Under the pieces are notes generated by a model that made no database searches, was not told the DNA's origin, and worked only from the letters and a program-made list of their open reading frames with translations. From a virus (lineage: Duplodnaviria > Heunggongvirae > Uroviricota > Caudoviricetes): DNA of 6,552 nt. Position numbers and translations under genes: made by a program. Shown here in pieces: positions 1-6,552 of this stretch (the stretch's first letter is position 1; each line of letters begins with the position of its first letter). Where the stretch lies: the IMG/VR virus record IMGVR_UViG_2778261527_000003; one strand, written 5' to 3'.

Positions 1-564
1 TACCCGATACTTTTTCCATGCTTCCAGCAACGAGATTTCTTCCTCCGTTGCAATTTCCAGATCTGCAGCATCCTGAAGCGGCGCAATATGCTCACTGGCT
101 ACCTGCATCAGGTTGTTTTTTGTTTCTTCCGCCTCCCGGATCCGGAACAGTTTTTCTGCTTCCGTATCCTTCACCCAGGCTGTGCCGTTCCACTTCTGAA
201 ACTCCCCTTCCGGCGATAACCAGGTAACATTTTTCGGTAACGGACCGAGTTCAGAAATAAATAACGCGTCGCCGGAAGCCACGTCATAAACCGTTTTACC
301 CCGATGATCTTCAACGAGATGCCACGATGCCTCATCACTGTTGAAAACAGCCACAAAGCCAGCAGGAATATCTGGTGGTGCAATATCGGTACTGTTTGCT
401 GGCAGACCTGTATGAGGCGGAATATATGCGTCACCTTCACCAATAAATTCATTAGTTCCGGCCAGCAGATTATAAATTTTTATGGTCCGTGGTTGTTCAC
501 TCATTCTGAATGCCATTATACTCGCACCGAAAATGTCAGCCAGCTGCTTTTTGTTGACTTCCAT
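1..564 (-). CDS. tfa: In-frame fusion ORF: Nu1 codons 1-16 joined to a lambda Tfa-like tail fiber assembly protein; 3' end runs off the window start
   Basis: Own translation of the minus strand from ATG at 564..562 gives [16 protein letters not shown] (lambda Nu1 N-terminus as recalled) followed by [172 protein letters not shown], with no stop down to position 1. The second part matches lambda Tfa as recalled. Tfa's own ATG is at 516..514. Not in the ORF track because no stop lies inside the window. Confidence 0.8.
517..564 (-). pseudogene. nu1: Remnant of terminase small subunit gene Nu1 (first 16 codons only), immediately downstream of cosB
   Basis: [16 protein letters not shown] encoded at 564..517 on the minus strand; the homology stops abruptly and continues as tfa. 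Position relative to cosB R1 is as in lambda. Confidence 0.75.
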
Positions 565-584
565 TGTTCATTCCACGGACAAAA

Positions 585-713
585 ACAGAGAAAGGAAACG
601 ACAGAGGCCAAAAAGCTCGCTTTCAGCACCTGTCGTTTCCTTTCTTTTCAGGGGGTATTTTAAATAAAAACATTAAGTTACGACGAAGAAGAACGGAAAC
701 ACCTTAAACCGGA
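585..713 (-). other. cosB terminase-binding region: R1 (585-606), R2 (629-647, inverted), IHF site I1 (about 651-690), R3 (691-713)
   Basis: Three copies of the CGTTTCC(T/G)TTCT motif: R1 and R3 in one orientation, R2 inverted, with an AT-rich IHF-like segment between R2 and R3. Order cosN-R3-I1-R2-R1-Nu1 start as in lambda (recalled). Confidence 0.75.
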
Positions 714-741
714 AAATTTTCATAAATAGCGAAAACCCGCG

Positions 742-753
742 AGGTCGCCGCCC
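742..753 (-). other. cosN cohesive-end sequence (12 nt, GGGCGGCGACCT on the minus strand)
   Basis: Plus strand aggtcgccgccc at 742-753 is the reverse complement of the lambda 12-nt cohesive end; flanked by CGCGGGTTTTCGCTATT on the Nu1 side and GTTACG on the other side, as at the lambda end junction (recalled). Confidence 0.8.
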
Positions 754-952
754 CGTAACCTGTCGGATCGCCGGAAAGGACCCGCAAAATGATAATAATT
801 ATCATCTACATGTCACAACGTGCATCTACGCCATCAAACCACGTCAAATAATCAATTATGACGCAGGTATCGTATTAATTGATCCGCATCAACTTAACGT
901 AAAAACAACTTCAGACAATACAAATCAGCGACACTGAATACGGGGCAACCTC

Positions 953-1147
953 ATGTCAACGAAGAACAGAACCCGCAGAACAACAACCCGCAACATCCGC
1001 TTTCCTAACCAAATGATTGAACAAATTAACATCGCTCTTGATCAAAAAGGGTCCGGGAATTTCTCAGCCTGGGTCATTGAAGCCTGCCGTCGGAGGCTAA
1101 CGTCAGAAAAGATAGCATATACATCAATTAAAAGTGATGAAGAATGA
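953..1147 (+). CDS. ylcI: Small YlcI/YnfO-family (DUF3950) prophage protein, 64 aa, possible ribbon-helix-helix fold
   Basis: ORF MSTKNRTRRTTTRNIRFPNQMIEQINIALDQKGSGNFSAWVIEACRRRL...; basic N-terminus followed by a short strand-like segment and two helices. Family assignment from recall, not searched. Weak SD (GGGG) upstream. Confidence 0.55.
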   Translation: MSTKNRTRRTTTRNIRFPNQMIEQINIALDQKGSGNFSAWVIEACRRRLTSEKIAYTSIKSDEE

Positions 1148-1311
1148 ACATCCCGCGTTCTTCCCTCCGAACAGGACGATATTGTAAATTCACTTAATTA
1201 CGAGGGCATTGCAGTAATTGAGTTGCAGTTTTACCACTTTCCTGACAGTGACAGACTGCGTGTTGGCTCTGTCACAGGTTAAGTAGTTTGAATGATTAGC
1301 AGTTATGGTGA

Positions 1312-1518
1312 TCAGTCAACCACCAGGGAATAATCCTTCATATTATTATCGTGCTTCACCAACGCTGCCTCAATTGCCCTGAATGCTTCCAGAGACACCT
1401 TATGTTCTATACATGCAATTACAACATCAGGGTAACTCATAGAAATGGTGCTATTAAGCATATTTTTTACACGAATCAGATCCACGGAGGGATCATCAGC
1501 AGATTGTTCTTTATTCAT
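1312..1518 (-). CDS. ybcW: YbcW-like small prophage protein, 68 aa (lambda right-end orf family)
   Basis: [71 protein letters not shown]; GGAG SD 7 nt upstream of the ATG; same position relative to cos as in lambda/DLP12 (recalled). Confidence 0.7.
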
Positions 1519-1803
1519 TTTGTCGCTCCATGCGCTTGCTCTTCATCTAGCGGTTAAAATATTACTTCAAATCTTTCTGTATGAAGATTTGAGCACGTTG
1601 GCCTTACATACATCTGTCGGTTGTATTTCCCTCCAGAATGCCAGCAGGACCGCACTTTGTTACACAACCAATACTATTAATTGAAAACATTCCTAATATT
1701 TGACATAAATCATCAACAAAACACAAAGAGGTCAGACCAGATTGAAACGATAAAAACGATAATGCAAACTACGCGCCCTCGTATCACATGGAAGGTTTTA
1801 CCA

Positions 1804-2214
1804 ATGGCTCAGGTTGCCATTTTTAAAGAAATATTCGATCAAGTGCGAAAAGATTTAAACTGTGAATTGTTTTATTCTGAACTAAAACGTCACAATGTCT
1901 CACATTATATTTACTATCTAGCCACAGATAATATTCACATTGTGTTAGAAAACGATAACACTGTGTTAATAAAAGGACTTAAAAAGGTTGTAAATGTTAA
2001 ATTCTCAAGAAATACGCATCTTATAGAAACGTCCTTTGATAGGTTGAAATCAAGAGAAATCACATTTCAGCAATACAGGGAAAATCTTGCTAAAGCAGGA
2101 GTTTTCCGATGGGTTACAAATATCCACGAACATAAAAGATATTACTATACCTTTGATAATTCATTACTATTTACTGAGAGCATTCAGAACACTACACAAA
2201 TCTTTCCACGCTAA
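1804..2214 (+). CDS. ybcV: YbcV-like DUF1398 protein (putative envelope protein), 136 aa from ATG 1804
   Basis: ORF ...[51 protein letters not shown]...; GGAAGG SD 8 nt upstream of ATG 1804. The track ORF begins at TTG 1681 and an alternative ATG at 1762 lacks an SD. Sits between bor and ybcW as in lambda/DLP12. Confidence 0.7.
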
Positions 2215-2504
2215 ATCATAACGTCCGGTTTCTTCCGTGTCAGCACCGGGGCGTTGGCATAATGCAATACGTGTACGCGCTAAACCCTGTGTGCATCGTT
2301 TTTAATTATTCCCGGACACTCCCGCAGAGAAGTTCCCCGTCAGGGCTGTGGACATAGTTAATCCGGGAATACAATGACGATTCATCGCACCTGACATACA
2401 TTAATAAATATTAACAATATGAAATTTCAACTCATTGTTTAGGGTTTGTTTAATTTTCTACACATACGATTCTGCGAACTTCAAAAAGCATCGGGAATAA
2501 CACC

Positions 2505-2798
2505 ATGAAAAAAATGCTACTCGCTACTGCGCTGGCCCTGCTTATTACAGGATGTGCTCAACAGACGTTTACTGTTCAAAACAAACAGACAGCAGTAGCA
2601 CCAAAGGAAACCATCACCCATCATTTCTTCGTTTCTGGAATTGGGCAGAAGAAAACTGTCGATGCAGCCAAAATTTGTGGCGGCGCAGAAAATGTTGTTA
2701 AAACAGAAACCCAGCAAACATTCGTAAATGGATTGCTCGGTTTTATTACTTTAGGCATTTATACTCCGCTGGAAGCGCGTGTGTATTGCTCAAAATAA
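2505..2798 (+). CDS. bor: Bor lipoprotein (serum-resistance lipoprotein of lambdoid phages), 97 aa
   Basis: MKKMLLATALALLITGC... signal peptide with lipobox ITGC; full-length match to lambda Bor as recalled; opposite strand to the lysis genes as in lambda. Confidence 0.9.
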   Translation: MKKMLLATALALLITGCAQQTFTVQNKQTAVAPKETITHHFFVSGIGQKKTVDAAKICGGAENVVKTETQQTFVNGLLGFITLGIYTPLEARVYCSK

Positions 2799-2804
2799 TT
2801 GCAT

Positions 2805-2830
2805 GAGTTGCCCATCGATATGGTCAGCTC
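2805..2830. terminator. Imperfect hairpin between convergent bor and Rz (candidate bidirectional terminator)
   Basis: GAGTTGCCCAT-CGAT-ATGGTCAGCTC: 11-nt arms with 2 mismatches; lies in the 31 bp between the bor stop (2798) and the Rz stop (2830-2832). Confidence 0.4.
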
Positions 2831-3291
2831 TATCTGCACTGCTCATTAATATACTTCTGGGTTCCTTCCAGTTGTTTTTGCATAGTGATCAGCCTCTCTC
2901 TGAGGGTGAAATAATCCCGTTCAGCGGTGTCTGCCAGTCGGGGGGAGGCTGCATTATCCACGCCGGAGGCCGTGGTGGCTTCACGCACTGACTGACAGAC
3001 TGCTTTGATGTGCAACCGACGACGACCAGCGGCAACATCATCACGCAGAGCATCATTTTCAGCTTTCGCATCAGCTAACTCCTTCGTGTATTTTGCATCG
3101 AGCGCAGCAACATCACGCTGACGCATCTGCATGTCAGTAATTGCCGCGTTCGCTAGCTTCAGTTCTCTGGCATTTTTGTCGCGCTGGGCTTTGTAGGCGA
3201 TTGCGTTATCACGGTAATGATTGACCGCCCATGACAGGCTGACGATGATGCAGATAATCAGAGCGGATATAATCGCGGTTACTCTGCTCAC
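2830..3291 (-). CDS. rz: Rz inner-membrane spanin (i-spanin), 153 aa, apparent GTG start overlapping the R stop
   Basis: Translation [60 protein letters not shown]...INEQCR, lambda Rz-like; N-terminal TM segment. The codon aligned to the lambda Rz ATG is GTG at 3291..3289 (GTGA overlap with R stop) with GGGGG 7 nt upstream. The track start at 3303 is also GTG and lacks an SD. Confidence 0.8.
2889..3071 (-). CDS. rz1: Rz1 outer-membrane lipoprotein spanin (o-spanin), 60 aa, embedded in Rz in the +1 frame
   Basis: [24 protein letters not shown]...proline-rich...; lipobox VVGC; AAGGAG SD 7 nt upstream; entirely inside the Rz ORF as in lambda. Confidence 0.85.
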
Positions 3292-3785
3292 TGTTGCCCC
3301 CACAAACAGACTTCACGCTCAATCTCACGACGAGTCATCAGGCCTTTCCATTGCTTACCGCCAGCGTATGTCCAGCGACGCAGCTGATCACATGCGCCTT
3401 TGATATCGCCCTGGTTTATTTTGCGAAGAAGCGTCGATGTTCTAAAATTGCCAGCACCCACATTGTAAACGAATGAGTAAAGAGCGCCGCGCGTTGTTTC
3501 CGGTATATCGACTTTGATATACGGGTTAATTTGTCTGGCGACAGTGGCAAGGTCTTTATTCAAGAGTGCTTTGCATTCTGCTTTGGTATACGTTTTACCG
3601 AGCATGATGTCTTTTCCGGTGTGTCCGTGACATACAGTCCATACACCAACAATATCTTTGTATGGTATGTAGCTGACACCTTCCAGACCATCGTTACCAC
3701 TTGGGCCAGTGATTAACACTGATGCTATAGCAATTGCTCCGCCACCAATAGCAGCAGCAACGGCTTTTCGTAATGATGGAGGCAT
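3288..3785 (-). CDS. rrrD: SAR endolysin (T4-lysozyme-family muramidase with N-terminal signal-anchor-release domain), 165 aa, phage 21 R / RrrD type
   Basis: [56 protein letters not shown]...: Gly/Ala-rich weak TM (SAR) followed by an E-x8-D-x5-T catalytic motif; GAGGTG SD; start overlaps the holin stop (TAATG). Confidence 0.85.
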
Positions 3786-4000
3786 TATTCACCTCTCGCA
3801 GCCTTGCGCTTATCTTCTTTAATCTTGAAATAAAGGTTTGTCAGGTACGTCAGCAGGCCAAATACCAGGCTACCCAGCACACCTATTGCTGCCCACTGTG
3901 AGGGAGTGACTTTATCGAGCAGCTGTAAAAACCAGTAACCGGCACTACCTGCTGAGGTGCCATAGGCGACTCCAGTTGTTAACTTATCCATGAATTTCAT
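3785..4000 (-). CDS. essD: Class II pinholin with dual-start motif (phage 21 S / EssD type), 71 aa
   Basis: [71 protein letters not shown]: two TM segments, charged C-terminus, Met1-Lys-Phe-Met4 dual start; AGGTGG SD upstream of ATG 4000. The track ORF extends to an upstream start at 4045, not preferred. Confidence 0.85.
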
Positions 4001-4494
4001 AACCCCACCTCGCAGACAAAGCGGGTGTAAATTGAGGGAATACAACGTATCGCAAAAAAGCAGAAACGTAACTGACTCCGAGTCAGTGAATAACTCAGGT
4101 ATTGAGTTATCAGCTAATATCGAGACTCAAAAAATGGAAAAACCAGCTCGACGGCGGGTTTAAGCTGTGTGACGAAGTAACCACTCTTAACAGCATAACC
4201 AATTTTTTACGTACGTAAACCACTGAATGATATTTATGAGAATGCTACCGAGTGTTCAAAACATCACCACAAATACATAAGAAAACCTCAACAAATAACC
4301 AATAAATAATTTCCAGTGTTATTTTTAGCCGGTTTAAATTAAACAGACGAATTATAGAACCACCATAAATAACAGCCATTAATATAAATTAGCTAATAGA
4401 TTTATTTTTGTTCAAATAAGAGCCATAAATAGGTTTCGATAGAAAAAGTTCAGATAAAAATAGAGATCTACTTCACAAATTAAATGAGAAACTA

Positions 4495-4588
4495 AAACTT
4501 ACATCTTGAAATAATCACATTGATTAGATGAATATTTATCGCGCAGTGACATCATTTTTTAATAATAGTTCAAAAAAAAGGGCTCACG
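4495..4588 (+). promoter_or_regulatory. Porin promoter region with an OmpR-box-like element (about 4499-4518) and SD AAGGG at 4578-4582
   Basis: TTACATCTTGAAATAATCAC resembles ompC/ompF OmpR-binding half-sites (TTTACATTTTGAAACATCTA type, recalled). No unambiguous -35/-10 pair identified by eye. Confidence 0.35.
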
Positions 4589-5686
4589 ATGAAAAAATTA
4601 ACAGTGGCAATTTCTGCTGTAGCTGCATCAGTACTGATGGCGATGTCTGCTCAGGCAGCTGAAATTTATAATAAAGACAGTAACAAGCTGGATCTGTACG
4701 GGAAAGTTAATGCCAAGCACTACTTTTCCTCTAACGATGCAGATGATGGTGATACTACTTATGTTCGTCTTGGCTTCAAAGGCGAAACCCAAATCAACGA
4801 TCAGCTGACTGGTTTCGGTCAGTGGGAATATGAATTCAAAGGCAACCGCGCTGAATCTCAAGGTTCCTCCAAAGACAAAACCCGTCTTGCATTTGCAGGC
4901 CTGAAATTCGGTGACTACGGCTCAATCGATTACGGCCGTAACTACGGTGTAGCATACGACATCGGTGCGTGGACTGACGTTCTGCCAGAATTCGGTGGCG
5001 ATACCTGGACCCAAACAGATGTGTTCATGACTGGTCGCACCACTGGTGTTGCAACCTATCGTAACAACGACTTCTTTGGTCTGGTTGATGGTCTGAACTT
5101 TGCTGCTCAGTACCAAGGCAAAAACGATCGTAGCGATTTCGATAACTACACCGAAGGTAACGGTGATGGCTTCGGTTTCTCTGCTACCTATGAATACGAA
5201 GGATTCGGTATCGGTGCAACTTATGCGAAATCTGATCGTACCGACACTCAAGTTAATGCAGGGAAAGTTCTTCCTGAAGTATTTGCTTCCGGTAAAAATG
5301 CAGAAGTTTGGGCCGCAGGTCTGAAATATGACGCTAACAACATTTACCTGGCCACTACCTATTCTGAAACCCAGAATATGACTGTATTTGCTGATCACTT
5401 CGTTGCTAATAAAGCTCAAAACTTCGAAGCTGTTGCACAATATCAGTTCGATTTCGGTCTGCGTCCGTCCGTTGCTTACCTGCAATCTAAAGGTAAGGAT
5501 CTTGGAGTATGGGGCGATCAGGACTTAGTCAAATATGTTGATGTAGGTGCAACCTATTACTTCAACAAAAATATGTCTACTTTCGTTGATTACAAAATCA
5601 ACCTGCTTGACAAAAATGACTTCACTAAAGCACTCGGTGTAAGCACTGATGACATCGTTGCTGTAGGTCTGGTTTACCAGTTCTAA
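4589..5686 (+). CDS. nmpC: General diffusion porin of the OmpC/OmpF/PhoE family, prophage-encoded NmpC/Lc type, 365 aa precursor, intact
   Basis: Signal peptide [25 protein letters not shown]; porin-like beta-strand pattern rich in Gly/Tyr/Asp/Asn; C-terminal ...VGLVYQF with terminal Phe; located between Q and the lysis cassette on the opposite strand, as for nmpC in DLP12 and lc in PA-2 (recalled). Confidence 0.85.
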
Positions 5687-5696
5687 TCTGATTACG

Positions 5697-5736
5697 AAAA
5701 AGATATGTTGCGGGAGGCGTTGCCTCCCCAACATAT
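5697..5736 (-). terminator. Intrinsic terminator for minus-strand transcription, candidate tR' of the late operon
   Basis: On the minus strand: ATATGTTGGGGAGGC-AAC-GCCTCCCGCAACATAT (about 15-bp stem with one bulge) followed directly by CTTTTT (plus-strand AAAAA at 5697-5701). No U-tract on the plus-strand side. Confidence 0.6.
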
Positions 5737-5759
5737 AAGTGGCTCCCTCAAGCCACTTC

Positions 5760-5875
5760 CTTTAGGAGCACAACCTTGCTTCTAACTATATAAACCTTCT
5801 GTTATATATTACCCTTTATTTTTGGGGGCGTTGCAACGCCCCATTTTTAATAACTTTCAGTAAACAATTGGCATA
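5760..5875 (-). promoter_or_regulatory. Expected location of the Q-dependent late promoter (PR'-like) and Q-utilisation site
   Basis: Positional inference: immediately downstream of Q and upstream of the tR'-like terminator. Best sigma70-like candidate is TTGCAA (5831-5836) -N19- TAATAT (5806-5811) on the minus strand; spacing is non-canonical. Confidence 0.3.
5824..5850 (+). terminator. Rho-independent terminator for the porin / IpeX transcript
   Basis: GGGGCGTTGCAACGCCCC palindrome followed by ATTTTTAATAA on the plus strand; the minus-strand side is followed by CAAAAATAAAGGG, so it is unidirectional. Confidence 0.7.
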
Positions 5876-6259
5876 TTAATTAGAGTTATTAACAACGATA
5901 TCCATCTCTAACCGGATATCTAATGCCATTAACATCCCTTCAATTATGCCCTCAGCCTTCTGTAACCTTTTCCCGATATAACCATCAGAGCAGCAATGCT
6001 TACCTGCCAGTGACATGAATGTCATACCGACTACATAATAATCTACTAATAAATCGTGCAAATCGCTGTTGTTCTTTTTCAGACGGGCCATGCACCCGCA
6101 AATGATCATCGCGTCATCGTCACAACATTGCGGGCGAGATTTTACTTTTGAAGGAATTAATCCCTTAAAACCGGCGGCAATGGACGACCAGGTCACATCT
6201 TCATGATTATTAGCCGCCCACGCTCCCCAACGTTCAAGAACCATCTGAATATCACGCAT
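5876..6259 (-). CDS. quuD: Late-gene antitermination protein Q (QuuD-like), 127 aa from ATG 6259
   Basis: [60 protein letters not shown]...KHCCSD...; Cys-rich; GGAG SD 9 nt upstream of ATG 6259. The track start at 6274 is TTG. Matches DLP12 QuuD as recalled. Confidence 0.8.
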
Positions 6260-6276
6260 TAACTTTCTCCACAAAA

Positions 6277-6552
6277 TCAGGCCAGCACACCAATCGCCAG
6301 TGCGCGATCGATAAAACGAAATATCAGCTCCAGCTGGGAGCCATACTTCTCTTCAAATGCCACGGTACCCTGGCGACGCGCCTTACGCGTTAACCAGCCT
6401 TCTGCTTCCAGCCGTGCGATAGCCGTTCTGACGGTACTCATCCCCGCGCCAATCTGGCGGGCAATGGTTTCAATCGATGGCCAGCACACACCTTCGTCAT
6501 TACTGAAATCAGCCAGGCGGGCCATAATTGCCACGCTGGATAATTTCATGCC
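6277..6552 (-). CDS. Probable winged-helix/HTH DNA-binding protein, 90 aa or more; 5' end may lie beyond the window
   Basis: [64 protein letters not shown]...; the [17 protein letters not shown] segment looks like a recognition helix plus wing. The frame remains open to the window edge. Family not recognised with certainty. Confidence 0.5.

Follow-up and report, generated by a model that had tools for sequence, protein, structure and literature searches.

The window, by which we mean the whole 6,552-nucleotide stretch of IMG/VR virus record IMGVR_UViG_2778261527_000003 that was analyzed, carries on its minus strand a truncated HTH_36 replication-type gene, the antiterminator Q gene quuD (Pfam E = 8.5e-54), the holin/endolysin/Rz/Rz1 lysis genes, ybcW, a cos site and a stub of the terminase small subunit gene Nu1 fused to the tail-fibre assembly gene tfa. 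The plus strand encodes an intact NmpC-type porin, bor, ybcV (DUF1398) and ylcI (DUF3950). The window represents the late region of an Escherichia coli lambdoid prophage of DLP12 type. The arrangement reproduces the late order of DLP12 (qsr'), namely Q, nmpC, S/R/Rz/Rz1, bor, ybcV, ybcW, ylcI, cos and the Nu1 homologue, and the window was collinear with both K-12 DLP12 (~98% identity) and the DLP12 remnant of TW14425 (99.9%). A DLP12 prophage is expected at argU, beside appY and ompT. These two relatives adjoin ompT, whereas the window contains only prophage, without chromosomal flank; the module is also found at other positions in intact prophages. In the assembly collection, the exact porin protein is listed for 17,393 blocks, and ten porin loci among the matches listed each contained Nu1 in full length along with A, the portal gene and further head genes.

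In gene order the window parallels K-12 DLP12 from quuD through nmpC, essD, rrrD, rzpD/rzoD, borD, ybcV, ybcW and ylcI to cos. The two remnants differ in how they have been eroded. K-12 DLP12 retains a full nohD and an A fragment joined to tfaD, and its nmpC is disrupted by IS5; in the window, by contrast, Nu1 is cut at codon 16 onto the tfa ATG, the nmpC gene is uninterrupted and a deletion has taken out the stretch between the replication gene and Q. The coordinates of the features discussed below are collected in Table 1.

Table 1. Features of the cos region and of the two gene fusions in the window. Lambda positions are those of NC_001416.
Feature	Window position	Strand	Remarks
tfa, tail-fibre assembly gene	1–516	−	From its own ATG, in-frame fused to the Nu1 stub; Pfam Caudo_TAP E = 5e-30
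Nu1 (terminase small subunit) stub	517–564	−	16 codons; identity to lambda ends at 518
Nu1 ATG	562–564	−	Lambda 191–193; distance from cos as in lambda
Equivalent of the complete cosQ-cosN-cosB cassette	573–810	−	Lambda 48446–182, 238 bp
R1	589–604	−	Lambda bp 151–166; 16-mer identical to lambda and to R2
R2	630–645	+	Lambda bp 109–124; inverted relative to R3 and R1; 16-mer CTGTCGTTTCCTTTCT identical to lambda
I1 interval between R3 and R2, with IHF site I1	646–688	−	Lambda bp 66–108; A73G (681), T102C (652)
R3, critical TerS binding site	689–704	−	Lambda bp 50–65; C53T at 701
I2, AT-rich bent spacer between cosN and cosB	704–736	−	Lambda bp 18–50; identical to lambda
cosN, 16 bp	740–755	−	Lambda 48501–14; 16/16 bp identical to lambda; sole match in the window
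12-nt cohesive end GGGCGGCGACCT	742–753	−	Single occurrence in the window; two flanking bp on each side within cosN
Predicted cosN nicks	754/753 (minus strand); 742/741 (plus strand)		
cosQ, packaging-termination signal, GGGTCCT	777–783	−	Identical to lambda 48473–48479, which we take to be cosQ of lambda; invariant in 6/6 aligned sequences
NmpC-type porin, intact	4589–5686	+	365 aa; between Q and holin, on the opposite strand
HTH_36::DUF968 in-frame fusion	6277–6549	−	HTH_36 replication-type N terminus (residues 7–53) plus ~30 C-terminal DUF968 residues

Base-by-base alignment to NC_001416 revealed a complete lambda-type cos on the minus strand of the window, with subsites as defined by Murialdo and Feiss in 2022 (PMC9026076) and in papers of the Feiss laboratory (PMC4669245, PMC4856287). 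Lambda bp n falls at window position 754 − n for n from 1 to 137 and at 755 − n for n of 139 and above, with lambda 48502 at window 754. cosQ, cosN, I2, R2 and R1 were base-identical to lambda and all spacings were unchanged; lambda bp 1–52 showed no substitution or indel in the window, and bp 1–137 no indel. Homology to lambda stops at bp 237, which is window 518, and the resulting 283-bp match of the cos region (BLAST E = 2e-145) lies far above chance. The segment that the Feiss laboratory treats as a complete cos (lambda 48446–182, 238 bp; PMC4856287) is represented over its entire length.

Individual subsites were then scored. At the 16 bp that define cosN (PMC9026076), the window contains the 12-bp cohesive-end sequence, the conserved flanking base pairs and the partial two-fold symmetry, and no second GGGCGGCGACCT site was found in the whole window when up to two mismatches were allowed. 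cosQ is a highly conserved element of 7 bp (PMC4669245), and the extent and role of I2 follow PMC4856287. The I1 interval has the same length as in lambda; placement of the IHF core and IHF binding within it are predicted. The R-core CGTTTCCNTTCT occurs exactly three times in the window, at 589–600 (minus), 634–645 (plus) and, with one mismatch, 690–701 (minus), compared to a mean of 0.17 matches in shuffled versions of the window, none of which (0/200) reached three. These three matches are R1, inverted R2 and R3 in the order and orientation of lambda. Rfam, promoter and terminator scans of the cos area returned nothing relevant to cos. At base resolution, the alignment and the R-core search bear out the original prediction of an intact lambda-type cos with R3-I1-R2-R1 in canonical order and orientation. 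The interval it gave (565–760) does enclose cosN and cosB, but leaves cosQ, itself intact, outside, and the site lies on the minus strand. Its statement that all three R motifs are present holds; R1 and R2 equal lambda, and R3 carries one substitution.

The differences from lambda are few. Three substitutions fall in cosB (C53T, A73G and T102C), and four more lie upstream of cosN within the 238-bp segment, at lambda 48459, 48467, 48471 and 48486, all outside the 7-bp cosQ. The window shares with lambda the subsites, their order, orientation and spacing and the distance to the Nu1 start; apart from these seven positions, it differs in having no cognate terminase genes, Nu1 being reduced to 16 codons. 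One further discrepancy concerns G138 of NC_001416, which is missing from the window (between 617 and 618) and shifts the numbering of R1 and Nu1 in the reference by one. An altered R2-R1 spacing was considered and rejected, as DE3 and four other lambda-like sequences aligned also lack this base; by sequence comparison, G138 is probably a peculiarity of the lambda reference record.

Natural variation was surveyed in 18 lambda-type cos copies (loci L001–L021). Variable positions were bp 53, 54, 73, 85, 97, 102, 134, 137, 139, 145, 151, 176, 183, 187 and 188, and among these 18 copies no variation was found in cosQ, cosN, I2, R3 bp 55–65 or the R2 and R1 cores. As judged from these sequences, the pattern is consistent with the published functional map.

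The substitution that could matter most is C53T. A cos that only looks intact, with one change abolishing TerS binding and leaving a dead site, would most plausibly be explained by this base: it lies inside the 16-bp R3 (bp 50–65), the most critical of the R sites (PMC9026076), all three lambda R sites have C at this position, and a minor-groove contact of the TerS wing is predicted just 5' of bp 55–63 (PMC9026076). T53 may thus reduce the strength of R3 or of this contact. However, the bases of R3 that contact TerS are bp 55–63, and the mutations known to impair packaging are at bp 56, 58 and 59 (PMC9026076); all of these are unchanged in the window, where bp 53 is the sole change in R3. The original prediction had proposed that cosN and R3 be scored against lambda for disabling changes, and with cosN matching at 16 of 16 positions, none of the known ones was encountered. 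K-12 DLP12 and phage record 2H10 carry all three of T53, G73 and C102, and T53 recurs in phage record PhiR29_1 and in an intact prophage of E. coli 602354.

Evidence from recombinants and intact prophages points the same way. Over window 518–800 (283 positions), every base equals lambda, K-12 DLP12 or both; K-12 DLP12 differs from the window at only four of the 283, and at those four the window equals lambda. Recombination between lambda and K-12 DLP12 spans the cos region, with junctions that cluster at cos and in some cases lie to its right (De Paepe et al. 2014, PMC3945230), and all tested lambda-DLP12 recombinants were active, including carriers of DLP12 nu1 (PMC3945230). The DLP12 cos/nu1 segment, with its T53, gives viable lambda hybrids. 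Among complete E. coli genomes, at least 40 carry the exact 283-bp haplotype. In E. coli 602354, it immediately precedes a Nu1 of full length that matches lambda Nu1 at 180/181 residues; A, W, portal, protease, D, E, FI and tail genes come next, so that this copy belongs to a prophage whose lambda-type terminase and head module are intact. A search for the exact 199-bp cos in 20 fetched loci gave no match, and it was BLAST that recovered the exact haplotype in strain 602354. Because every base equals lambda or DLP12, the hybrids are viable and the haplotype sits beside an intact terminase module, the cos is judged competent for a lambda-specificity terminase supplied in trans and is probably cleavable. 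We regard a dead site as very unlikely.

The enzyme itself is gone from the window. As the original prediction had it, the terminase small subunit is down to 16 codons: the 47 nt of lambda sequence cover 15 full codons and the first two bases of the next, which still encodes Ile. The recognition helix of TerS comprises residues 17–24 (PMC9026076), and the stub ends before it, which would leave the product unable to bind DNA. The resulting Nu1(1–16)::Tfa ORF (window 1–564, minus strand) lies 3' of cos on the strand of the late transcript and keeps the Nu1 translation start, and its tfa part extends past the start of the window. The junction joins GGTGCGAGTAT to AATGGCATTCAGAATG with a 2-nt microhomology. 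A 9-nt sequence, CATTCAGAA, common to both junction parents, lies 5 nt beyond it. The tfa part was 96% identical to TW14425 and 94% to K-12 tfaD, compared to 99.9% to relatives for the rest of the window; the lower identity argues for a different origin of the tfa segment. An Rfam IS009 match (RF02111; window 1–173, minus strand; 195 bits against a gathering score of 117) was also detected inside the 3' part of tfa, where it is cut by the window end.

The extent of the loss became apparent from a close relative. Two deletions excepted, window 518–6367 was 99.9% identical to contig L011 (GCA_003793555.1), in which the module runs on into intact Nu1, A, W, B, C, D and E of an apparently complete prophage. 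In the first deletion relative to this contig, Nu1 after 47 nt is joined to the base preceding the tfa start codon, which eliminated the remaining terminase sequence together with every head and tail gene through the tail-fibre gene. The absence of terminase and structural genes asserted at the outset holds for A, W, B, C, D, E and the tail genes, but not for tfa, which is kept as a fusion to the Nu1 stub. The second deletion, at ~6363–6367, cost ~4.3 kb comprising DUF968, KilA-N, RusA, a LexA-like gene, Dam, PerC and most of the HTH_36 gene, and left the HTH_36::DUF968 fusion, for which no protein record was found in the assembly collection.

Three DLP12-type remnants, those of TW14425, K-12 and the window, have three different terminase-side deletion end points, and cos is kept in all three. 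In TW14425, the end point is a truncated Nu1 (annotated without its C terminus) joined to a tail-fibre fragment.

The Nu1::tfa junction was absent from 5,426 complete E. coli genomes, none of which matched in one piece, and exact searches did not find it in GTDB species representatives or metagenome contigs, so it is a rare and probably recent allele. Recent decay is indicated by the 99.9% identity that the window, its two deletions aside, shows to an apparently complete prophage. With so little divergence from the intact prophage, survival of cos needs no explanation other than that it has 'not yet been deleted'. In our preferred reading, one illegitimate deletion recently stripped a lambda-family DLP12-type prophage of all sequence between Nu1 codon 16 and the end of the tail-fibre gene. 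Taken together, the cos of the window is very probably the sequence-intact packaging site of a recently decayed DLP12-type prophage, a passive relic that would be competent in trans.

Because no terminase is encoded, the cos alone does nothing. A terminase from a superinfecting or co-resident lambda-like phage would act on it according to the lambda packaging scheme (PMC4669245, PMC4856287, PMC9026076), in which the cosB end is protected and packaged and the cosQ end is degraded (PMC4856287). TerL would nick cosN at the two predicted positions, and terminase would stay on the cosB end and feed cosB-side DNA into the prohead. Translocation would then run toward lower window coordinates, through Nu1'-tfa and into the flanking chromosome (the ompT side in relatives), while the cosQ end, with ylcI, bor, the lysis genes, nmpC and Q, would be left exposed to nucleases on the unpackaged side. 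The anatomy of the site, its identity to functional sites, the structure of the deletions and the prevalence of such sites are thus shown by sequence, whereas cleavage, the direction of packaging in the genome of the window and the absence of a selected host function are inferred.

A mature particle would require that another cosQ-cosN, oriented like the first, lie about one lambda length (some 38–51 kb) downstream; otherwise, packaging would be abortive or would yield only rare 'doc'-type particles. Sternberg and Weisberg reportedly found in 1975 that unexcised lambda prophages give rise to packaged host DNA (cited in PMC8008629). The original prediction had called packaging of the flanking chromosome speculative, and this caution was apt, as cos terminases need a second downstream cosQ-cosN (PMC6687093, PMC4669245). 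A headful cut is not available to these enzymes, and DNA left uncut prevents the tail from joining (PMC6687093). Packaging that began upstream can be terminated at a cos (PMC4669245), and since cosQ and cosN are both intact, the cos of the window could serve as the terminating site for packaging begun at an upstream lambda-, 21- or N15-type cos. Two other effects are realistic if terminase is supplied: (a) a terminase-made double-strand break would stimulate recombination between infecting phages and the remnant and (b) the remnant would offer a spare cos for phages to acquire.

These considerations bear on whether the orphan cos might be a launch pad for helper-mediated transfer resembling lateral transduction, moving the ompT, envY, nfrAB, cus and ent/fep side of the chromosome at meaningful frequency. 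The cos is competent as judged by its sequence, and packaging directed by cosB would enter the chromosome, which in TW14425 presents, in this direction, ompT, envY, nfrAB, a T6SS toxin locus, cus, pheP and the ent/fep cluster. Partner sites are common in the species: a lambda-type cos, counted when the match covers at least 80% of the query, was present in 3,980 of 5,426 complete E. coli genomes (about 73%), with a median of two and up to eight copies per genome. Helper packaging from a chromosomal cos is also established when a second cos is given, the Feiss assay yielding ~0.7–2.3 particles per cell from passive tandem prophages (PMC4669245). In that dilysogen assay and in lambda 'doc' particles, a chromosomal cos is used in trans and packaging proceeds from cosB into adjacent DNA, as would be expected here (PMC4669245; 'doc' particles as cited in PMC8008629). 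However, the assay has its second cos one genome length downstream and 'doc' particles are rare and defective, whereas no second cos is known for the window. The nearest complete relative, TW14425, was scanned as a proxy for the window's own genome: its 50 kb downstream contained no cosN with up to one mismatch, and the six matches with two mismatches correspond to the chance rate (5.2 expected). The need for a terminal cut at a second cos, and the block that uncut DNA poses to tail attachment (PMC6687093), weigh against such transfer. Lateral transduction by S. aureus 80-alpha and Salmonella P22 similarly runs unidirectionally from an in-situ site into flanking chromosome (PMC6687093, PMC8575938); these are pac phages, however, that combine headful termination with in-situ replication, while a cos terminase needs a second cos and the remnant is without a replication module. 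The truncated replication gene would also keep the locus from being amplified in situ. Transfer at meaningful frequency from this site is accordingly improbable in our assessment.

A cos without morphogenesis genes also recalls phage satellites, and defective prophages have been proposed as 'proto-hitchers' (PMC11389934). If the remnant were a PICI-like hitcher, it would mobilise itself in helper capsids. Gram-negative PICIs, such as the E. coli islands with Rpp, share with the window a lambda-like cosN, the lack of capsid genes and dependence on a helper (PMC9026076, PMC6739421). They differ in having their own cosB, read by Rpp-TerS, with rpp just after cos, and integrase and replication functions, none of which is present in the window. 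The cosB of the window is instead the helper's own lambda type rather than a distinct one read by Rpp (PMC9026076), the ORF after cos is Nu1(1–16)::Tfa and not an rpp-like gene, and only part of the replication gene remains, joined to a DUF968 tail. Integrase, excision and regulator genes were not found in the window, and packaging from this cos would leave behind the body of the prophage, which is on its cosQ side. With neither rpp nor a distinct cosB and with a truncated replication gene, a PICI-like satellite was rejected; the remnant is almost certainly not one.

Retention of cos in independently truncated DLP12 remnants (K-12, TW14425 and the window) could hint at selection. Orphan cos sites might, in that case, be selected entry and exit points for helper terminases, supporting chromosomal transfer between pairs of remnants and cos-proximal breaks that drive mosaicism. 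Were this so, infecting phages of lambda, 21 or N15 type would routinely use the chromosome as a place to begin or end packaging, and cos survival would reflect selection on phages or hosts. Nothing in the window supports this reading, and we give it, along with the regular chromosomal packaging that it implies, little probability. The passive relic described above remains our preferred reading.

An orphan cos in DLP12/qsr'-type cryptic prophages is already known and common, and only the deletion allele of the window is new. Fisher and Feiss are said to have observed in 1980 that a lambda cos mutant reverted through recombination with a defective prophage. The DLP12 cos has been drawn and used experimentally (PMC3945230), and the Feiss laboratory plates on E. 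coli C, K-12-type strains carrying defective-prophage cosN (PMC4669245, Methods). The interest of the cos was thus overrated in the original prediction: it is a textbook feature of such prophages.

The finding has little significance beyond annotation. For the lambdoid phages and their hosts, the cos may mark a place at which any lambda-specificity terminase can break the host chromosome, and it would be both a recombination hotspot and a donor for infecting lambdoid phages. Strains with an orphan cos would be poor hosts for cos genetics, since phages can rescue cos from them. If it were true that pairs of orphan cos sites support chromosomal transfer, cos phages would join pac phages in lateral-type transduction.
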